In this document: positions 7,026-55,973 of the stretch, piece by piece
How positions within the stretch are numbered: the first letter of the stretch is position 1
How the letters are laid out: the number at the start of each line of letters is the position of its first letter
From: Octopus vulgaris
Lineage: Eukaryota
Length of the DNA stretch: 64,000 nucleotides
Direction of reading: 5' to 3'
NCBI GenBank assembly: GCA_951406725.2
Contig: OX597823.1
Coordinates: 12,772,001 to 12,836,000 of the forward strand
The notes under the pieces: generated by a model
Told to the model about the DNA's origin: nothing
The model's input: the letters and a program-made list of their open reading frames with translations, nothing else
The model's database searches: none
Made by a program: the position numbers and the translations under genes

Positions 7026-7417
7026 AGGCACAGGCGTGGCTGTATGGTAAGAAGGCGGCGAGCTGGCAGAAACATTAGCATGCCGGACGAAATGCATTGC
7101 GGTGTCTTTGTATGCCGTTAAGTTCTGAGTTCAAATTCCGCCGAGGTCGACTTTGCCTTTCATCCTTTCGAGGTCGATAAATTAAGTACCAGTTACGCAC
7201 TGGGGTCCATGTAGTCGACTTGATACCTTTGTCTATTCTTGTTTGTCCCTTGTATGTTTAGCCCTTTGTGGGCAATAAAGAAATAAGAAGTTTGCATCCT
7301 AACTACATGGCTCTAGGTTCAGTCCCACTGTGGGCAAGCGTCTTCTACTGTAGTCTCGGACCGACCAAAGCTTTGTGAGTGGATTTGGTAGATGGAAACT
7401 GAAAGAAACCCTCTGTA

Positions 7418-13283: not shown

Positions 13284-14060
13284 CGTTTTTGCGAGCTGGC
13301 AGAATCGTTAGCATGTCTGGTAAAATACTTAGCGGTATTTCATCCGTCTTTACGTTCTGAGTTCAAATTCCGCCGAGGTCGACTTTGCCTTTCATCCTTT
13401 CGTGGTTGATAAATTAAGTACCAGTTACGCATTGGGGTCGATGTAATTGACTTAATCCCTTTGTCTGTCTTTATTTGTCCCCTCTATGTTTAGTCCCTTG
13501 TGGTTAGTAAAGAAATAGGTATTTCATTCGTCTTTACGTTCTGAGTTCAAATTCCGCCGAAGTCGACTTTACCTTTTATCCTTCGGGTCGTCAAAATAAG
13601 TACTAGCTGAGTACTGTAGTCGATGTATTTTGATCTCCCCTTCCTCCGAAATTTCTATCCTAGAGCCAAAATTTAAAACCACTGTTGCTATTATTAAGGC
13701 GGTGACCTGACAGAATCGTTAACATGCCGGATTATATGCTTAGTGGAATGTCGTCGGTCCTTACTTTCTGTAGTTCAAATGCCGCCCAGGTCGACTCTGT
13801 GTCTCATCATTTCGAGGTCGATAAAGTGCCAACTGAACACTGCAGTCTATGTAAATGACTTGCACCCGACATCCACACCATAAATTTCAGGACTTAGCGG
13901 CACTTCTTCTGGCTTTACATTCTTAATTGAAATGCTGCACAAGTCAACTCTGCCTTTCATCCTTTCCCGGCCGATAAAACTTGAACCGGTTAAGCACTGG
14001 GGTCGATGCAATCAACTACTGTCTCTCCCACATTTTCGAGCATTTTGCGTTTAGTGGGCA
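13284..14060 (+). mobile_element. SINE-B composite cluster (tail1 unit, ggtatttc-started tail2 unit, further degenerate units)
   Basis: Repeated SINE-B cores with junction aaagaaata|ggtatttc at about 13517. Confidence 0.8.
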
Positions 14061-23790: not shown

Positions 23791-24915
23791 TTACCTTATT
23801 TATAAAGAAGGACAGCATTGTATAATACGTTGATGTTTCGCTGTAAATTTGTAGACCATATTACAGTTCGAGAAATTTTCTTTATCTTGATACACATCTA
23901 AATCCACAATTTACAACCTGAATATACAACAAATGCTATTTAAACATTAGTATACTAGCGTTTTTAAAGTAAATGATGCCAACATATATATATATCTTGG
24001 GTCATCCCATAAGTAATGCAGTTTCTTTCAATTACATGAACTAATAGTCGGAGGGGGAAGGGATAAATTACTAGTAGCAGCAGCAGCAGCAGCAGCTTGC
24101 TTTGAAAGTAGGTAGAAATTTTCCCTTCAGCTTATTCTTAGTGCAAGTTTTGAAGAGTGCAGTTCGATTTTAATAGCCTTTTTTCAAAGCTATAATGGAA
24201 GTGACAGAGGAGCACATTCGTCATATTTTGCTTTATGAATTCAGAAAAAGTAACAATGTATCGGAATGTGCAAGAGATGTCAATGCAGTATACGGGGATC
24301 GGACAATAAGCATAAGCCTGTGTCAACGGTGGTTCCAGAAGTTCCGAGCCAGAAACTACAGCCTTGAAGACGAGCCTCGACCCGGAAGACCTGTTGAGCT
24401 CGACGACGACATCCTGCAAACCCTGGTGGAACAAAATCTTATCGTAGCTGTTGAGGAACAAGCAAAGAATCTTGGATTTGGTCATTCAACCATTAATGAA
24501 AATCTGCGTGACATCGGAAAAGTCAGGAATTTGGGTCAATGGGTTCCTCGTAAACTTTCCGAGTCTCATCGTGCGTAGAGTGTGAATGTGTGCTCTTCTT
24601 TGTTGCCACATCTTCTGAATGAACCTTTTTTGGAGCGAATAGCGACTGGTGACGAGATAAGGGTTCTCTATAAAATGTCAAACCCCGACGACAGTGGGTA
24701 GGGAAAAGAAAAACATCGGCAGCCCAGGCTAAAGAAGGTCTTCACCGTCATAAAATGTTGTTATCTGTTTGGTGGGATATGATATGTTTAGTTCGCTTTG
24801 AACTTTTAATTTCAAATCAAACGATAACAGAGGAGAGCAGATTGAGTGGTTTAAGTCAGCGTTAGATAAAAATGACCATGATTGGTTTCAAGACGAAAGG
24901 TGTTCTTCCATCATG

Positions 24916-34896: not shown

Positions 34897-35495
34897 TGCG
34901 GCGAGCTAGCTGAAACGTTAGCACGCCGGGCGAAATACTTAGCCGTATTTCGTCTGCCGTCACGTTCTGAGTTCTGCTGTTACGTTCTGACAGACTTAAT
35001 CCGTCTGTCTGTTCTTGATTGTCTCCTCTGTGTTTAGCGCCTTGTGAGTAGTAAAGAAATAGGTATTTCGTCTGTCGCTACGTTCTGAGTTCAAATTCTG
35101 CCGAGATTGACTTTGCCTTTCATCCTTTCGATTAAATCAGTACCAGTTACGCACTTAATCCGTTTGTCTGTACTTGTCTGTACTGGTACATATTTAATCG
35201 ACCCCGAAAGGATGAAAAGCAAAGTCGACCTCGGCGGAATTTGAATTCAGAACGTAACGGCAGACGAAATACCTATTTCTTTACTACCCACAAGGGGCAA
35301 AACACAGAGGGTACAAACAAGGACAGACACACGGATCAAGTCGATTACATCGACTCCAGTGCGTAACTGGTACTTATTTAATCGACCCCGAAAGGATGAA
35401 AAGCAAAGTCGATCTCGGCCGAAGTTGAACTCAGAATGTAACGGCAGACGAAATACCTCTCTGTGTTTAGCCCTTTGTGGGTAGTAAAGAAATAA
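34897..35495 (+). mobile_element. Rearranged SINE-B composite with internal inverted dimer, flanked by 123-bp direct repeats
   Basis: Plus-strand SINE-B units, inverted units at about 35182-35456, then tail-1 resumes. Flanks 34771-34893 and 35496-35618 are near-identical. Confidence 0.8.
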
Positions 35496-39053: not shown

Positions 39054-39636
39054 AACGGTGAGCTGATAGAAACGTTAACACGCCAGGCGAAATGCATTGC
39101 GGTATTTCATCTGCCGTTACATTCTGAGTTCAACTTCCTCGGAGGTCGACTTTGCCTTTCATCATTTCGGGGTCGATTAAAAAAGTACCAGTTACGCACT
39201 GGAGTCAATGTAATCGACTTGATCCGTGTATCTGTCCTTGTTTGCACCCTCTGTGTTTAGCCCCTTGTGGGTAGTAAAGAAATAGGTATTTCGTCTGCCG
39301 TTATGTTCTGAGTTCAAATTCCGCGGAGGTCGACTTTGCCTTTCATCATTTCGGGGTCGATTAAATAAGTACCAGTTACGCACTGGAGTCGATGTAATCG
39401 ACTTGATCCGTGTGTCAGTCCTTGTTTGTACCCTCTGTGTTTAGCCCCTTGTGGGTAGTAAAGAAATAGGTATTTCTTCCGCCTTTACGTTCTGAGTTCA
39501 AATTCCGCCGAGGTCGACTTTGCTTTTCATCCATTCGGGATCGATAAATTAAGTAGCAGTCGTGTACTGGGGTCGATCTAATCGACTGGTCCCTCCTCAA
39601 AAATGTCGGGCTTTAAGCCTAGAATAGAAAAGAATA
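39054..39636 (+). mobile_element. SINE-B trimer (tail1-tail1-tail2)
   Basis: Two aaagaaata|ggtatttc junctions (about 39283, 39468). The last unit ends with ccctcctcaaaaatgtcgggc...agaaaagaat. Confidence 0.85.
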
Positions 39637-39825
39637 TGCCGCATTGCGGTTCGCATGTGAAACCCCATAGTTATAGTGCGAGTATCTTATTAACACGGCT
39701 ATGATTGCAGAGCTCAAGGTTGCCGTCTATCACATGATTTACCTCACTCATTATCAGGAACAAAAATATTCAAATAAATGCAAACGACTCCGCCTTTGGA
39801 AAAGGAATATGCCAAGAAACATGAA

Positions 39826-40225
39826 GGTAGTGAGCTGGCAGAAACGTTAGCACGCCGAGCGAAAAGCTTAGACGTATTTCCTCTGCCGTTACGTTCTGAG
39901 TTCAAATCCCGCCGACGTCGCCTTTGCCTTTCATCCTTTCGGGGTCGATGAAATAAGTACCAATTACGCACTGGGGTCGATGTAATCGACTTAATCCGTT
40001 TGTCTGTCCTTGTTTGTCCTCTCTGTGTTTAGCTCCTTTTGGGTAGTAAAGAAATAAGTATTTGGTCCGTTTTTAACGTTCTGAGTTCAAGTGTCACCGA
40101 GGTCGACTTTTCCTTTCAAAAATTCCCGGATCAATAAAATATGTATCCGTTGAGCACTGAAATTGATGTAATCGATTGAGCCTTTCCCCCGAATGTTCCG
40201 CCCTTGTGTCAAAATTTGGAACCAA
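39826..40225 (+). mobile_element. SINE-B dimer (tail1-tail2)
   Basis: Head, core, tail-1, junction gaaata|agtatttg, second core, ccttgtgtcaaaatttggaacc tail. Confidence 0.8.
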
Positions 40226-40258
40226 TACGTAGTATCATCACACACTCTTTCTACACAG

Positions 40259-40677
40259 TCTTTTTCTCTTTTATTCTCTTTTTCTCTTTTACTTGTTTCA
40301 GTCATTTGACTGTGGCCATGCTGGAGCACCGCCTTTAGTCGAGCAAATCGACCCCAGGACTTATTCTTTGTAAGCCCAGTACTTATCCTAGCGGTCTCTT
40401 TTGCCGAACCGCTAAGTGACGGGTACGTAAACACACCAGCATCGGTTGTCAAGCAATGCTAGGGGAACAAACACAGACACACAAACACACACACGCATAT
40501 ATACATATATACAACGGGCTTCTTTCAGTTTCCGTCTACCAAATCCACTCACAAGGCTTTGGTCGGCCCGAGGCTATAGTAGAAGACACTTACCCAAGGT
40601 GCCACGCAGTGGGACTGAACCCGGAACCATGCGGTTGGTAAGCAAGCTACTTACCACACAGCCACTCCTGCGCCTAT
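40259..40677 (-). mobile_element. SINE-A, full length
   Basis: Minus strand aggcgcaggagtggctgtgtggtaagtagcttgcttaccaacc...tgactgaaacaagtaaaagag. Shows the uninterrupted target site. Confidence 0.9.
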
Positions 40678-41568
40678 GTACATATATTCTGCTTTACAAA
40701 TAAATAAATATATCTGACACAGATGCCCATCTTTTTTTTGGAACGATTCTGTAAATTTGAGTTGTTCTCTGCCATTATCTTTTTCCTGCTTATCAGCAAT
40801 TGCATGAAATTTTTTTTTATACTGTTTCCGAAGTATATTTTTCCCAAATATATGTTTTTGTTTTATTGCATGACAAAGTTCAAAAATTGAAATACTTTTC
40901 AATTTAATTTTCACTGCTCAACGAAATTCGTATTTAATTAGTTTTGTTGCTAATGGTTTCCTATCCCCCCCCCCAAAAAAAAATTATTTATCTTTTTCCT
41001 GTTGATGTGTACACATGTTCGAGAAAATTTCAAACTTTTTAATTACTTGTCATATAGTTTATGTTCTTGGTTCACATGGAATCCGCACTATAGCTATTCA
41101 TGAGTAACAAAACCTCTTTACTTAAGTTGGAGTCAACGAGGAAACCTTTCACTAGACTAGTGACTCGCTAGAAATAGAAGCCAAATTTCCTTAAACAAGC
41201 ACGTGTTTGCATCTCTCTACGCAGTCATAAGCAAGATTTTTCTGGAATACTGGGAGTTGTCTTTGCATACACATCCCTACTTCCTCATCAACATGTTAAC
41301 TCAAAGAAAAGACCATCGCTTTATGACTAATATAGCTTGGAACCAGTGTTGTCTTAAGCGTTGTAAGGTATTGCATCCGATGTTCTATCGATAATCTGTT
41401 ATTGATCTCGAAATGAAATAAAGGTAACGGGGATTTCAATGACATTTGAAGTAAGAGTGACGAGATTAGGAGAGAGTACCTTCAGGAATTCCATCGATCG
41501 CTCGTGTGATTTTGCGAATTTATCGCCATAGAAAGTACAGACACTAATTTCTTCCCGAAAAGTCAAAT

Positions 41569-41852
41569 TACTCTTTTACTCTTTCACTCTTTTACTCTTG
41601 AACCCGGAACCATGTGGTTGGTAAGCAAGCTACTTACCACACAGCCACTCCTGCGCCTATGTACATATATTCTGCTTTACAAATAAATACGCATATATAT
41701 ATACATATATACGACGGGCTTCTTTCAGTTTCCGTCTACCAAATCCACTCACAAGGCTTTGGTCGGCCCGGGGCTATAGCGGAAGATACTTGCCCAAGAT
41801 GCCACGCAGTGGGACTGAACCCGGGACCATGTGATTGGTTAGCAAGCTACTT
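41569..41852 (-). mobile_element. SINE-A 3' portion (host of the ORF1-only elements)
   Basis: Tail (aagagtaa)n at 41569-41598, body to ...aagtagcttgctaacca. The 5' head continues at 46395-46436. Confidence 0.85.
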
Positions 41853-43912
41853 TATTTTATATAATTTGCCACTAGGGCAGCACACAGAGTAGTTGCGGGC
41901 TGGACAAGGACATTAATGGATGATGGTGGTGGTGGTGGATGACGATGGTGATGGGAGAAGTCAGAAAGCGCCCGCCGACTTTTGCTTCTCTAAAACAATG
42001 TTCTTTTTTTTTCAATAATTTACAAACTTTCAAAAATTACAAAAAATTCAAAAAATTTTCACAAAAATTTCAATTTACAATTTACACTTTTAAAAGTCTC
42101 TTCAGAGGCAATAAACCTCTGTCACAATGTAACACAATTACAATTTTACGTTACCCGACCGATGAACTCTCTTGCTTTAATGACGCAATCGTCCATCGTC
42201 AGGCTTCCGCATACAGGTATGACTTGCAAGAGATCCTCCGGGAAAGAATTCTCAATCCTGCACATATCATTTTCGAGTAGGACCTCCGCAGCCAGCTGCG
42301 AAGGCCACTCGGGATACTCCATGCAGGACCGAAGTCCCTCCCATTGGTTTCTCTTCCTCCTCTTACGTATTTCATTTTCTACAGTGCCTCCTTTACGGAA
42401 GAGGACTACATAAAATTTCTCCGGCATCACAATCGCCGGAGGAAACATGGGAGACGCCCTCTGGGTGTTACAGTCCGCTAGTGGCGTCCCGTTCCTCTTT
42501 TTCTTTTTCTTTTTACGCTGGGCCTCGGGAGGTTGAGGTTCCGGTGCTATACGCACCGGGTCCTCTTTTTCTTCCGCAGCCTCCGGTTCCTTGGGTGGGT
42601 CGCCATTGCTCCCCACTCTTCTTTTTCTTTTGGAGGAGGATTTTTCCCCCTCCTCACTTTGTTTCTCTCCCTCCATTGGTGGGGCAGGGAGAGGCTCTGA
42701 TATTAACTTCTCCAGGATCCTACTCTGGTTCCTGGGGCAGTTTCTCTTAATGTGGCCGGTCTCCGAACACAGGTGACACTTGGGGGCGCGTCCCTCAAGT
42801 ATCACCGGATACTTGGACCCGGCCATCTTCAAGAAGTCCGGCAAAACCAGACTCTTGGCCGACTGGGTCCACAGAGTCAAAGTAGCCTTTGCCCCTTCCC
42901 AGTCAGCTGCAGGCTCTATCTTCACGTTCAGGATCTTGGCGCTACCGCCACTCAGACCCCGGCGGATGGAATCTTCCACCCACTCGGGCTCAAAGCCTGG
43001 CGGCAGGCCGCAGACCCATAATCGTATCAATTTTTCCCCCTTATAGCTGGGAGAAACAGAATCTCTTCGCCCTCAATGGGCTTACTCGCGAAATCGCAAG
43101 CTGCTTTAGGGGAGTCAAACAGCAACCAAATCGTTGCGTATTTGGCTCCCCGTTGAATATATTTAACGGCTGGCATATAATCTGCCAGCTCGTTCATAAT
43201 GGTAGCTTTTGGGAAAACCATTATGGTATCGAGCGACCTCGAATATGTCCTCAATACCACGGTTCTGTCCTCGAGCTCCTTTAAGTACTTTTTGGGAGGT
43301 GTTAATTCCCACACTGAAATTCCTTGCCATAAGGTAAGAAAAACAGTTCAAAATGTTACAAAATAAATTATTAGACACAGAAAGGAGAATGAAAAAAGCA
43401 ACAGAAGGGAAGAAATAAAATTAAAATGGCAGTTCAAAAAAAGTACTTTTTTTTTTTACAAATGAATGATAGACGGAGAAAGAGAGTTCAAATTCAGACA
43501 AAGGAATTAATTTTTCTTTTTTTTTTTTTTTTGTTCACTTTTTCTGCCAAAAATTGTATTCCAGGCCAAATACACAGTTGGTGAAACACCTTGGTAAAAT
43601 AATCCTTGGTAAATCCCGTGGATAACACAACGACAATTTCAAAAATAATTTTTGCAGACGGACTACGCCGCCTCAAAAACACAATTTTCTTCACACCCGA
43701 CAACAGGCAGAAAAATTATATCCGGAGCAAAGTGGAGCCTTATTATCTGCTAAAAAATATTTAATGCTAAAAAACATTAATGCAAGTAATAAAACTTCAC
43801 TTCGCTCGCAAAAATACAAAATTCCTACCTTTAGTCGAGTCGAAAGTTCAACAATTCACGTTGAAACAACGTGGCATCTGGAGCAGCAAAATAACACGTC
43901 CGAACAGTTCAG
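41853..43912 (-). mobile_element. ORF1-only non-LTR retroelement, copy A (HAL1-like, Tx1/L1-type ORF1)
   Basis: Bounded by target repeats tggttagcaagctactt (41836-41852) and aggttagcaagctactt (43913-43929). One 5' monomer, ORF1, about 290-bp 3' UTR ending ataaaata. No ORF2. Confidence 0.8.
42146..43330 (-). pseudogene. Gag-like ORF1 (RRM-like plus CCHC zinc knuckle), two frameshifts
   Basis: Colinear with the 399-aa copy. 2-bp loss near 43312 and 1-bp loss in a C run near 43050. Contains CHLCSETGHIKRNC (CX2CX4HX4C). Confidence 0.8.
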
Positions 43913-44217
43913 AGGTTAGCAAGCTACTTTATTTTATTTAATTTGCCACAAGGGCAGTACACAGATAGTAGCTACGGGCTGGACATAGACATTAATGAAT
44001 GATGGTGATGGAATGAAGATGGTGATGGGAGAAGACGAAAGCGCCCGCCGACCCCCGCTTCTCTAAATCAATGTTCTTTTTTCAATAATTTTACAAAATT
44101 TTCAAAATTTCACAAAAATACAAAAATTTCACAAAAATTCCAAATTTTACAAATCACAATTTCAAAAGTTTTTCCAGAGGCAAAAAACCTCCATCACAAT
44201 ATAACACAAATACAGGT

Positions 44218-45417
44218 TCACGTTACCCGACCGATGAACGCTCTTGCTTTATTGACGCAATCGTTCGCCGTCAGGCCCCCGCATACAGGTAAAATTTGAT
44301 AGGAGCCCTCCGGGAAAGACTTCACGAACCTGCACCGATCGTCATGGAGTAGGACCTCCGCAGCCAGCTGCGAAGGCCACTCGGGATACTCCATGCAGGA
44401 CCGAAGTCCCTCCCATTGGTTTCTCTTCCTCATTTTACTTATTTCATCTTCTATTGTTCCTCCTTTGTAGAAGAGGACTACATAATATTTCTCCGGCCAC
44501 ACAATCACATACGGCGGAGGAGACATTGGAGACGCCGTCTGCGTGTTACAATCCGCTGGCGGCGTTCCGTTTCTCTTCTTTCTTTTTTTCTTTTTACCGT
44601 GGGCCACGGGAGGTTGAGGTTCCGGTGTTGCACACGCCGGATCCACTCTATCTCTCGTAGCTTCCTGGTCTTTTAGTGGGTCACCATTGTTCCCCACTTT
44701 CCGTTTTCTCGTTGAGGAAGTCTCCGCTTCCTCGTTCTGTTTCTCTCCCTCTATTGGTGGGGCAGGGAGAGGCTCCGATATCAACTTCTCCAGGATCCTA
44801 CTTTGGTCCCTGGGGCATTTCTTCTTAATGTGGCCGGTCTCCGAACACAGGTGACACTTGGGGGCGCGTCCCTCTAGCATCACCGGATACTTGGACCCGG
44901 CCATCTTCAGGAAGTCCGGCAAAACCAGACTCTTGGCCGACTGGGTCCACAGAGTCAGAGTAGCCTTTCCTCCTTCCCAGTTAGCCGCAGGCTGCATTTT
45001 CACATTCAGGATCTTGGCGCTACCACCGCTCAAACCCCGGCGGATGGAATCTTCCACCCACTCGGGCTCAAAGCCGGGCGGCAGGCCACAGACCCATAAA
45101 CGTAACAATTTTTCCCCCTTGTAACTGGGGAGAAACAGAATCTCATCGCCCTCAATGGGCTGGCTTGCAAATTTGCAAGCTGCTTCAGCGGAGTCAAATA
45201 GCAACCATACCGTTGCGTATTTGACTCCCCGTTGAATATGTTTAACGGCTGGCATATAGTCTGCCAGCTCGTTCACAATGGTGTCTCTCGGAAAAACCAT
45301 TATGGTGTCGAGTGACTTTGAATATGTCCTCAACACCACGGTCTTTTCCTCGAGTTCGTGCAAATATTTTTTGGGAGGTGTTAATTCCCACACAGTGAAA
45401 TTCTTTGCCTTTGCCAT
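44218..45417 (-). CDS. 399-aa gag-like ORF1 protein: RRM-like segments, LEGRAPK-CX2CX4HX4C knuckle, basic linker, conserved C-terminal domain
   Basis: Intact ATG-to-stop ORF, visibly GC-rich relative to the background. CHLCSETGHIKKKC knuckle. Synonymous differences versus copy A. Confidence 0.85.
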   Translation of the reverse strand: MAKAKNFTVWELTPPKKYLHELEEKTVVLRTYSKSLDTIMVFPRDTIVNELADYMPAVKHIQRGVKYATVWLLFDSAEAACKFASQPIEGDEILFLPSYKGEKLLRLWVCGLPPGFEPEWVEDSIRRGLSGGSAKILNVKMQPAANWEGGKATLTLWTQSAKSLVLPDFLKMAGSKYPVMLEGRAPKCHLCSETGHIKKKCPRDQSRILEKLISEPLPAPPIEGEKQNEEAETSSTRKRKVGNNGDPLKDQEATRDRVDPACATPEPQPPVAHGKKKKRKKRNGTPPADCNTQTASPMSPPPYVIVWPEKYYVVLFYKGGTIEDEISKMRKRNQWEGLRSCMEYPEWPSQLAAEVLLHDDRCRFVKSFPEGSYQILPVCGGLTANDCVNKARAFIGRVT

Positions 45418-45763
45418 AACTTAAAATACAACAGTTCAAAATGATAAACTAAAATTAGCCACAGAAAGGAGAATGAAAATGCAACAAAAGGGAAGAAATA
45501 AAAATGGCAGTTCAAAAAAGTTTTTACAAATAAATGATAGAAGAGAAAGAGAGTTCAAATCAGGCAAAGGAATTCAGTTTTCTTTTTTCTTTTTTTTTTT
45601 TTCACACTTCTTCGGCCAAAATGGTAATCCAGGCCAAATGCACTTGGTAAACCTTGGTAAATAATCCTTGGTGAAACCCTTGGTAAATAATCCTTGGTAA
45701 TCCGTGGACAACACAACGACAATTTCAACAATAATTTTTTCAGACGGACTATGCCGCTTCAAA

Positions 45764-46360
45764 AATACAATTTCTTTTCACTCGACACAGGCAGAAAAAT
45801 TATATCTGGAGCAAAGTGGAGCCTTATTATTTGCTAAAAAATATTAAATGCTAAAAAACATTCATGCAAGTAATAAAACTTCACTAAACTCGCAAAAACA
45901 TAAAACGCCTACCCGCAGTCGATTCGAACGTTCAACAATTCACGTTGAAACAACGCGACATCAATACAATTTTCTTTTCACTCGACACAGGCAGAAAAAT
46001 TATATCCGGAGCAAAGTGGAGCCCTATTATCTGCTAAAAATATTAAATGCTAAAAAACATTCATGCAAGTAATAAAACTTCACTAAACTCGCAAAAACAT
46101 AAAACGCCTACCCGTAGTCGATTCGAACGTTCAACAATTCACGTTGAAACAACGCGACATCAATACAATTTTCTTTCCACTCGACACAGGCAGAAAAATT
46201 ATATCTGGAGCAGAGTGGAGCCCTATTATCTGCTAAAATATATTTAATGCTAAAAAACATTAATGTAAGTAATAAAACTTCACTTCGCTCACAAAAATAC
46301 AAAATTCCTACCTTTAGTCGAGTCAAAAGTTCAACAATTCACGTTGAAACACGTGGCATC
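45764..46360 (-). repeat. Three tandem 199-bp monomers in the 5' UTR of copy B
   Basis: Unit starts (aatacaat) at 45764, 45963 and 46162. Copy A has a single unit at about 43680-43878. Confidence 0.9.
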
Positions 46361-46394
46361 TGGAGCAGCAAAAAAACACGTCTGAACAGTTCAG

Positions 46395-46436
46395 TGGTTA
46401 GCGAGCTACTTACCACACAGCCACTCCTGCGCCTAT
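46395..46436 (-). mobile_element. SINE-A 5' head (completes the 41569-41852 copy)
   Basis: Minus strand taggcgcaggagtggctgtgtggtaagtagctcgctaacca. Confidence 0.85.
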
Positions 46437-46788
46437 ATCTTTTTTTTAAAAAAATAGCATAATAAAGTTATATGATTATATTTAATCTAATTTTAACAAA
46501 CCTGAAGTAGAACATGCACAGTTATTAGTTTGTTCGAGTATATTTGTACGAAATAAAAGATGAACGACTGCAGGAAAGTAGGAGCAATTTTTCGAGTGGA
46601 TTTGATAAACAAGACTAAATGAAATATTCTTTTACGGAGCGAGAAAAAGATAATGGGGGATTATAATGCGCTGCAGTTTCAAGATTATTCATGAATAGCG
46701 TTCGTATTTATGAACAGCAATAATAATCTGAATGAATTTAATGATTCTTCCACAACACTGCTGAGTATTTCAATTACATAGCAGTATT

Positions 46789-47173
46789 CTCTTTTACTTG
46801 TTTCAGTCATGTGGCTGTGGCCATGCTGGAGGGCCGCCTTTAATCGAGCGAATCGACCCCAGGACTTATTCTTTATAAGCCAAGTACTTATTCTATCGGT
46901 CTCTTTTGCCGAACCGCTATGTTACGGGGGCGTAAACAAACCAGCATCGGTTGTCAAGCGATCTTGGTGGGGGAGAAACACAGACACACAAACATACATA
47001 CATATATATATATATATACATAAATACGACGGGTTTCTTTTAGTTTCCGTCTACTAAATCCTCTCACAAGGCTATAGTAGAAGACCCTTGCCCATGGTGC
47101 CACGCAGTAGGACCGAACCCGGAACCTTGTGGCTGGTAAGCAAACTACTTACCACACAGCCACCCCAACGCCT
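46789..47173 (-). mobile_element. SINE-A, full length
   Basis: Tail, body, internal microsatellite and head ggctgtgtggtaagtagtttgc. Confidence 0.85.
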
Positions 47174-47327
47174 ACAAGCCACGCCTACGAGTATTGTTGG
47201 TCAATATTTCTGAATCGCTTCATAGACTAACACTTTCTAGAGTAGCACACATGACTGCACACACACGCGCGCGCGCATACACACACATACATATATATGC
47301 ATTTATACAGGCTTGTACATATGTATA

Positions 47328-53835: not shown

Positions 53836-55335
53836 AAACTTAAAACTTAATAAAACTTAGATATGTTTCGACCAGAGATTGGTCCAGGCCATGTCTAACT
53901 TAATAGCACCACCTGATAGGATTATTCGAATCCTGTTTAAGTCAAGTTTTGTTCAAGTAGTGAGTTCTTGTTGGGTGAGTTGTATCCAATTATGGGTGGC
54001 TTGTCTGGTATTCTTTGAAGGAATCTATCCAGACTCTGTTTGAAGTTGATGGGATCCTTTTCCTCTTTGATCTCCCTCGGGACAATGTTAAATAGGGCAG
54101 GGCCTGTTGAGGAAAAGAAATTATGTTGCAGTGTACATGTATGTTGTGATCTTGAATTTGGCAGGGGACGTATAGCCCGTGGTCCAAGTCTCGGATGAAC
54201 CTTGAAGCTAATGTTTAGGTCGTTTGGGCAAAGTTGGCGGTATATTTTCCACATCGTACAAATGATGTACCGCTCACGGCGACGCTGGAGGGAGTAAAGT
54301 TTCAAGGCTTTAAGGCGATCCCAATAGTCGAGAGCAGCCATGCCTTCAATTTGTTTAGTGAGAGCCCTCTGGGGTGACTCAATTCTGGAGATGTTTTGTC
54401 TTGTGTGAGGAGACCACAGTGGGCAGCAGTATTCAAGGTGTGGCCGTACAAAGGATGAAAAAAGTGGTATGATGACACCTTGTTCTCTGGACCGGAAAGT
54501 TCTTAAGATCCAGGAACTCATCCTACGAGCTGTATCGACCTTCTTGTTGATGTGTGCACTCCAACTGAGATCGTCATCAACAATTACACCCAGGTCTCTG
54601 ATATTGTTAGAGGCTGTGAGCGGTTCCCCTGAAGGAAGAGCGTATGGTTGTTTTAGTGAGGAATTTCTTCCAAAATGCATCAGCTCAAATTTTCCCTCGT
54701 TCAGTTGCATTTTGTTTCTGTCTGCCCATTGACTCTCAGCATATAGGTCAGACTGGAGTTGAGTTCGGTCTGCTTCTTCATTGACGATTTGCTGGAGCTT
54801 AGTGTCATCAGCGAATATTTTCACTTTGCAGTGATGTACGACACTGGAAAGGTCGTTTACATAAATTATGAAGAGTAGCGGACCCAAAACAGTTCCCTGG
54901 GGAACACCGCTGGTGACTTTTGCTGGGTTTGAGTGGACTCCATCAACTACAACATGTTGTGTTCTATTCGCTAGGAAATACTGAATCCAGTGTAGAACTT
55001 TTCCACGGATTCCAACATTTGCCAATTTTGAGAGTAGGATGTTATGGTCTACCCTGTCGAACGCTTTACTGAAGTCAAGGTATATGACGTCAGAGTTCGA
55101 ACCTGTTCCCAAGGCTTTGAGTACATCTTCAATGTGGTGTAAGAGCTGTGTTAGACAGTCCCTGCCACAGCGAAAGCCATGTTGATTTGAATTTAGGAGT
55201 TTGTGGGTCTCCAGGAAGTCAGCTATCATTGATCTTAACACTCTTTCAAACACTTTAATGATGTGGGAGGTGAGTGAGATTGGGCGATAGTTGACTGGAG
55301 AGGGATCTGTTTCCCTGTTTGAAAACCGGGATGAC
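53834..55335 (-). mobile_element. 5'-truncated CR1-like LINE inserted in a (TA)n microsatellite
   Basis: RT ORF plus a short 3' UTR with hairpin and (aagtttt)n tail. (TA)n on both sides. Confidence 0.88.
53937..55335 (-). pseudogene. CR1-like reverse transcriptase (C-terminal part of ORF2)
   Basis: [45 protein letters not shown]. Open apart from a 1-bp shift near 55298 ([18 protein letters not shown]). Confidence 0.9.
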
Positions 55336-55350
55336 ATATATATATACATA

Positions 55351-55515
<165 letters not shown>

Positions 55516-55973
55516 ATATATTGTATTAGTCTAAAGAGCGTTCGTAGTGAAAGCAGATGTCTTTTGATAGGTACCATGTGTAAGTGCAAATTTCTTCTGT
55601 AAGCCTCGAGAATATTGCATAATTAATGGGGATTCAGAAAGCCCAGAGTCGTCAACTCTGATATGTTGGTTTATTCTATATGCGATGCTTGATGATTTTC
55701 TTCAAGACAAGACATAATTAATTCAAATGTCCATCTCATGCCTGCAATTTAAAAATTCAAATGATTTCAGCCATTGGAATAAAGTCATGCTGGATAATCG
55801 GTTCCAGAGTTTTCAGTCAATTTTATCAACGCCGATACTTAAATATTGTCGATTCTAATTATCTCTTCACTATTTCTCCAAGCTACCTCTCTTTAGATGG
55901 TTCCTTCTATTTCAGTAGTATACAATGTATATCATGTCTTAAAAGGTATATACGAACATAAACACACAGGCAA

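Follow-up and report, generated by a model that had tools for sequence, protein, structure and literature searches.

The Octopus vulgaris locus studied here raises the question of how an element that encodes only an ORF1 protein is moved, and whether the same LINE also moves an abundant SINE with a similar 3' end. In the 64,000-nucleotide stretch of DNA analyzed (the window), two ORF1-only copies lie in tandem on the minus strand and split the head of one SINE-A (46411-46433) from its body (41693-41836). Copy B (43929-46395) lies upstream of copy A (41852-43913), separated from it by a 15-bp target repeat alone (43914-43928). The same repeat, also on the minus strand, stands on the 5' side of copy B (46396-46410, differing by one letter from the other two) and on the 3' side of copy A (41837-41851). 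Copy A has an ORF1 with a zf-CCHC domain (42146-43330, frameshifted near 43050), and copy B has an open ORF1 of 399 aa with a zinc knuckle (44218-45417). Inspection of ORFs and domains revealed neither an ORF2 nor a reverse transcriptase (RT) in either copy. From the sequence of this locus, the first-pass annotation had proposed that the ORF1-only element and a second SINE, SINE-B, share a 3' tail and are both passengers of the same L1/Tx1-like autonomous partner. SINE-A and SINE-B are working labels, given without reference to the published octopus SINEs OK, OR1, and OR2, and the LINE family numbers I to V are labels of this analysis. Genome-wide searches were performed on the 2.8-Gb genome.

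An APE-RT LINE ending in the same tail, as the proposal implied, does exist in the form of an intact L1-group element of about 5.4 kb (family I), found by searching with the ORF1+ORF2 LINEs of arrays beside ORF1-only elements. Its 60 rows correspond to 48 distinct places, all 48 of which lie at the same bond of the SINE-A head with a 15-bp repeat. The 3' ends of ORF1-only elements join this very bond in 30 of 30 fetched relatives of copy B and in all 85 distinct-context rows among the collected loci. Furthermore, ORF1-only elements and ORF1/ORF2 LINEs occur together in mixed tandem arrays (L039, L041/L102). In eight fetched regions of family I, ORF2 was always open over 1140-1150 codons, both ORFs were open in two, and the 5' end followed the SINE-A head with the 15-bp repeat in seven. 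The ORF2 product carries endonuclease, RT, and zf-RVT domains (Pfam), its nearest solved protein is human L1 ORF2p (E 8e-67, versus 6e-20 for R2), and ORF1 carries a zinc knuckle. These are traits of Tx1-type LINEs, namely, a zinc knuckle in ORF1, an APE endonuclease with RT and a C-terminal zinc domain, and membership of the L1 group, as is sequence-specific insertion into a multicopy target, seen at all 48 places. On the basis of its anatomy and target specificity, family I is likely an L1-group LINE of the Tx1 clade.

Copies at the bond arose by independent insertion, since 26 young LINE copies agree at 99.4% over their last 200 nt but at 93.2% in the SINE flank, and since 5'-truncated copies bear their own 14-15-bp repeats. 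Both the young intact family I copies and the window elements use the T-variant of the site. Two other candidate partners were discarded: the long ORF of L035 looks RTE-like from its translation, and an RT-coding LINE fragment within the window (53937-55622, minus strand; RVT_1, E 4e-30), which has a dinucleotide repeat at its upstream end, is unrelated to the arrays. Young family I also prefers one SINE-A subvariant, which accounts for at least 17 of its 26 junctions and for 5 of the 36 empty sites compared with them (L107-L135 versus L186-L225). Between stacked elements, variants of the 15-bp repeat track the family that follows (L003, L004, L010, L015, L020, L030, L131, L144), which suggests that the 5' end of full-length elements may itself resemble the target.

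We then compared the tails themselves. The element 3' end had been placed at 41853-41920 on the minus strand, and these coordinates are right (the tail of copy A is taken here as 41852-41920), but the sequence quoted as the copy B version is a hybrid, with its first half from copy A and its second from copy B. Similarly, the quoted SINE-B tail-1 blends several window copies and matches no single literal one, although the tail-1 motif is present in the window. For example, tail-1 is followed by SINE-B internal sequence at 39219-39284 (+), and other tail-1 ends lie near 13515, 19842, 29311, 35059, 39468, 40056, 49703, 56204, and 56420 on the plus strand and near 35274 on the minus strand. Direct pairwise likeness between ORF1-only and SINE-B tails was marginal. 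In local alignments of six pairs, the real score was matched or exceeded by 14, 17, 18, 31, 336, and 766 of 2000 dinucleotide shuffles, and by between 35 and 1257 of 2000 once the A-rich last 14 nt were removed. End-anchored alignment against 11 window SINE-B tails (22 pairs) gave 0-12 of 500 shuffles as high for copy B and 0-31 of 500 for copy A, and a BLAST comparison of the window with itself showed no link between the two kinds of tail.

The resemblance became clear through a profile built from autonomous LINE tails only, 10 in number (one of family I, three of family III, and six of family IV) and reduced from 27 found by pattern. Copies A and B scored 21.4 and 23.9 bits, and 10 of the 11 window SINE-B tails scored 20.6-29.8 bits, with none of about 500 shuffles of each as high. 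One SINE-B tail and one tail of an ORF1-only subfamily reached only about 8 bits (two shuffles as high for each), and an unrelated second SINE-B tail, used as a control, scored -0.8. Because ORF1-only and SINE-B tails both score on a profile of autonomous LINE tails, their homology is clear, and alignment and profile together identify the SINE-B tail as homologous to a LINE 3' end. Compared with the family I tail alone, 0 and 1 of 2000 shuffles scored as high as copies A and B, and 0 and 1 of 2000 as high as two SINE-B tails; without the last 14 nt, the two ORF1-only values became 58 and 525 of 2000. The 5' half of the SINE-B tail has 29 of 30 letters in common with family I. The 3' half lies nearer to the L040 lineage and to family V, the latter in all 14 rows of a sample that favored family-V-like ends.

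A predicted terminal hairpin of 4 bp with a 5-nt loop precedes the A-rich end of these tails (41867-41879 in copy A, columns 16-19/25-28 of alignment A1; 43944-43956 in copy B by the same tail alignment; both on the minus strand). In an alignment of 24 hand-picked, related tails, one or a few per family, 89.6% of 96 cells were paired versus 69.8% in shuffles, and 19 double changes were counted versus 5.9, with none of 500 shuffles as high in either case. Slid registers paired at 51% or less, and RNAalifold recovered the same helix. The shared stem-loop that the proposal led one to look for is thus present as a helix of 4 bp with compensatory changes among these hand-picked, related rows. Counted by pairs that show double changes, the signal did not exceed that of shuffles (58 of 500 as high), single tails folded no better than their shuffles (z -1.9 to +0.6), and the helix is invariant within 14 ORF1-only tails.

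The tail is not confined to family I. Families II, III, IV, and V are ORF2-bearing relatives with the same tail motif and four kinds of microsatellite downstream, so that the tail is borne by at least five LINE families (family I and at least four others) that differ in target, and it therefore identifies a clade and not one partner. Two more lineages that have an ORF1 with no ORF2 seen also end in the motif. One (L040:3191-4850, L246-L265) is a second, older ORF1 lineage with no fixed target, whose tail is among the closest to that of SINE-B. The other (L105:5585-6964, L180:8459-9822, L073) has a distinct ORF1 and uses the same SINE-A bond, with no complementary stretch in its last 100 nt. 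On one small contig (G000:C50:5491-58923), family III LINE ends recur every 5.9 kb or so, forming a tandem LINE array.

A second feature of the ORF1-only tails is the portion elided in the first-pass quotation, which turned out to be a stretch complementary to the target (41888-41896 in copy A, with one letter decayed, and 43967-43973 in copy B, both on the minus strand). SINE-B tails lack such a stretch. Among the collected loci, all 76 ORF1-only tails with a T-type stretch lie at T-sites and all 5 with an A-type stretch at A-sites, with 4 decayed; for 11 rows of this tally the T-site was read from the printed sequence. A T-type stretch was also present in 45 of 49 LINE-type tails, the other 4 having none within 100 nt. 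Among 20 copies at A-sites, 4 were truncated, 13 had an A-type stretch, and 3 a T-type stretch.

What the stretch does admits two readings. Somewhat better than even, in our judgment, are the chances that site choice is purely enzymatic and that the stretch is a cis-pairing element, matching the read-through 3' flank, or a relic, rather than a guide. Pairing in cis accounts for the covariation of stretch and site equally well as guiding would, and independent changes in this pairing are few. At T-sites, four LINE-type tails have no such stretch within the last 100 nt; three of these belong to the lineage in which L073 and L105 showed no ORF2. Of the 16 informative copies at A-sites, 3 carry the T-type stretch. 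Stretch-bearing tails and SINE-B tails do not differ recognizably in duplex energy. No conserved loop presents the stretch: folded singly, copies A and B show an inner hairpin that would do so, but this hairpin is not maintained among 14 ORF1-only tails. Endonuclease-based targeting is moreover the accepted rule in the account of Tx1-type elements consulted in part (PMC4494074). Less easily reconciled with this reading are the strict sorting of T-type and A-type ORF1-only tails by site, the 13 of 16 informative A-site copies with an A-type stretch even though the two variants are equally common (15 versus 16), and the position of the stretch, which is non-homologous between LINE and passenger tails. 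These observations leave some room for a modular tail, which we entertain only tentatively, in which the clade-wide hairpin would be the handle for the RT and a separate target-pairing stretch of 6-9 nt would be an RNA address; passengers with the address, such as the ORF1-only element, would land at one base, and SINE-B, with the handle only, would land loosely. If true, an endonuclease-type LINE would be choosing its site with the help of RNA, and changing one letter would be enough to retarget it.

To see where SINE-B lands, we examined the sequence that follows its tail. In 40 random 10-kb stretches, 1 of 40 SINE-B tail ends was at the SINE-A bond, 19 were followed by SINE-B sequence, and 20 lay elsewhere. 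The corresponding counts were 3, 40, and 42 among 85 ends from all collected loci, and 0, 6, and 24 among 30 listed SINE-B matches. Target repeats of 9-19 bp flank many SINE-B insertions, which favor four bases at the site only loosely, and most SINE-B copies lie either at such loosely preferred sites or within SINE-B itself. The bases directly downstream of the tail do not belong to the SINE, as they recur upstream as target repeats. Genome-wide, 272 of 24,552 exact SINE-B ends (1.1%) join the SINE-A bond, a share that is a lower bound because exact matches were required; SINE-B copies accordingly number at least 24,552. A control site in the same SINE-A with the same first five letters had 1 exact SINE-B junction versus 272 at the bond, and exact sites numbered 17 and 31 per 400 kb, respectively. 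With about 1 junction expected from 31 sites per 400 kb, SINE-B is enriched at the bond about 290-fold. The window holds such a case, a SINE-B with tail-1 (7055-7285, plus strand) inserted at the same bond, in an A-variant site, of another SINE-A (head 7028-7049, body from 7286). A SINE-A head with varied 5' junctions was seen at 24 of 30 SINE-B-at-bond loci, which rules out one amplified SINE-B-in-SINE-A composite.

The two passengers do not share both site and variant. In addition to the small share of SINE-B at the bond, 96 of 100 listed SINE-B junctions there are in the A-variant of the site, although the two variants are equally common, and the T-variant is the one occupied by the window elements and by young family I. 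Family-I-type ends were found at the A-variant in 133 exact junctions, with an ORF2 upstream in 2 of 20 hand-picked cases (L389, L386). Older members of the family-I lineage likely placed the SINE-B minority at the bond, and the overlap between SINE-B and LINE is, given these older relatives, a minor one at the level of the lineage. We also searched for a LINE that targets an internal site of SINE-B. All 14 sequences fetched from 92 matches were SINE-B copies, the candidates L347 and L391 had no ORF, and 19 further matches resembled mutated SINE-B tails. Five LINE families share the SINE-B tail, and none of them matches both the whole tail and the target.

These landing sites bear on the proposal that one partner, the family-I lineage, moves every tail-1 copy of SINE-B, which would then land loosely only for want of the complementary stretch. 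The hot spot at the same bond, target repeats of similar size, the near-identity of the tail's 5' half to that of family I, and the ORF2-bearing LINE-type tails at the A-variant all speak for it. We nevertheless consider it unlikely, since so few exact ends are at the bond, genome-wide as well as in random DNA and among the listed matches, since those that are there lie mostly in the variant that young family I avoids, and since the 3' half of the tail is closer to family V, in that biased set, and to the L040 lineage. Even less credible, to the point of being very improbable, is a chance likeness of AT-rich 3' ends or spread as composites with SINE-A flanks: the direct alignment is marginal and 103 of 12,880 random 62-mers (true SINE tails included) reach its best score, but the LINE-tail profile and the hairpin covariation contradict it, as do flanks that diverge more than the elements, 5'-truncated copies with repeats of their own, and varied SINE-B junctions.

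Taken together, these results make it probable that the 3' end common to the ORF1-only element and SINE-B is the tail of a radiation of LINEs in the L1 group, likely of the Tx1 clade, and that the LINE enzyme likely recognizes the predicted hairpin of this tail. For the ORF1-only element, the enzyme likely comes from the intact family that inserts at the identical base, while SINE-B is likely carried mostly by other or older LINEs of the radiation. The claim of a single L1/Tx1-like partner is thus partly supported: it stands at the level of the clade and for the ORF1-only element, which shares bond and arrays with family I, and extends to only a small share of SINE-B.

Target-primed reverse transcription is established LINE biology. 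From the tails, insertion sites, 15-bp repeats, mixed arrays, intact ORF1+ORF2 copies, and hairpin covariation, we infer the enzymatic steps as follows. The ORF2 protein would bind passenger RNA through the hairpin and the A-rich end, after which the endonuclease would nick the SINE-A head and target-primed reverse transcription would insert the copy. A second nick about 15 nt away would regenerate the site, so that copies could stack. The passenger's own ORF1, which is under purifying selection, likely helps to package or co-assemble the particle. The short complementary stretch in LINE and ORF1-only tails may sharpen the choice of site, and SINE-B, without it, would land loosely.

The ORF1-only element has a single ORF homologous to LINE ORF1 and no endonuclease or RT, which makes it an ORF1-present non-autonomous LINE, and at least 106 matches show that it is multicopy and amplified as its own unit, with its ORF under selection (dN/dS 0.17-0.65 over 36 pairs of passenger ORF1s). 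This ORF1 is 27% identical to the ORF1 of families I and II, and a midpoint-rooted tree of 21 rows places nine passenger ORF1s in a clade of their own (100/100), set off by a long branch from every LINE ORF1. By its sequence, the element is therefore an old coding parasite and no fresh deletion of its present partner; it works like HAL1 and is not HAL1. The one protein that it keeps is predicted to bind RNA. A single-sequence AlphaFold model of ORF1 was unusable (mean pLDDT 39).

HeT-A forms head-to-tail arrays with its partner. Together with HAL1 (L1) and Ag-Sponge (CR1), HeT-A (Jockey) belongs to the known ORF1-present non-autonomous LINEs, and the portions of these papers that we consulted contained no Tx1-clade example (PMC5786205, PMC5753468). 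As in those elements, in so far as these portions describe them, only ORF1 is kept, under purifying selection, with a LINE-type 3' end; unlike them, the octopus element inserts sequence-specifically into a SINE and has an ORF1 distant from that of its present partner. In the sections consulted on crocodilian Tx1-Mar, and on Xenopus Tx1 in Tx1D, a Tx1-type LINE targets another transposon, the crocodilian SINEU shares the target preference to a varying degree (13-90%), tandem insertions are split by the target repeat, and different LINE families are inferred for different SINEs (PMC4494074). The octopus system resembles the Tx1-Mar/SINEU pair, as presented in those sections, in its transposon target, in a SINE that shares the preference, and in tandem insertions with the target repeat between them. 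It differs in that the target is a SINE head at one bond, that an ORF1-coding passenger is involved, and that the partnership is argued from a shared structured tail, whereas for Tx1-Mar and SINEU the argument made there is one of common target, age, and 5' heads.

L1-group LINEs are known mainly for taking poly(A). Stem-loop tails bound by the ORF2 protein are described for L2 LINEs in the pertinent part of PMC4176376, and L1-clade tail pairs comprise ZmSINE2/3 with LINE1-1_ZM and SINEX-3_CR with L1-1_CR in the portions consulted of PMC3472496 and PMC3747384. There, a 2012 survey covering over 800 L1-clade families counted just three SINEs whose tails belong to that clade, all plant or algal (PMC3472496, PMC3747384). 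As far as these portions reach, the octopus elements are like such stringent SINE/LINE pairs in sharing a 3' tail with a covarying hairpin and unlike the survey's pairs in representing an animal L1-group radiation, in which a single tail is common to at least five families and to several passengers. The text of an octopus repeat annotation, as consulted in part, lists 13 recently active L1-Tx1 families without targets or partners (PMC13282606), and two other papers mention only CORE-SINEs for octopus in the parts consulted (PMC4758252, PMC4824008). Our literature searches found no description of this octopus system, and Repbase, Dfam, the library and supplement of PMC13282606, and the 1994 octopus SINE paper may contain these families.

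With young intact LINEs, ORF1-only passengers, and thousands of SINE-B copies using one short structured tail and different landing sites, the octopus genome offers a natural series for telling RNA recognition from target choice. It brings two questions within reach of testing: why ORF1 is retained in half-LINEs, and whether pairing of RNA with the target helps a LINE of the endonuclease type to aim, which, if true, would matter for site-specific gene insertion tools. It is also a warning against reading a partner from a shared tail, which names the clade.

Several smaller observations concern the window and its SINEs. No tRNA gene was found, and 39800-47300 gave no Rfam match at gathering score. 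The 5' UTR of copy B (45770-46395) contains a unit of about 200 bp three times, and copy A has it once. The same SINE-A head, together with some 45 bp of flank, is present twice, 1 kb apart (40619-40706 and 41600-41690). An open frame at 24177-24578 on the plus strand resembles what we take to be the N-terminus of a mariner transposase. Finally, at L222:730-2050, five to six tandem SINE-B units of about 217 bp lie within a single 15-bp target repeat, and tandem SINE-B units of 184 bp are common elsewhere.
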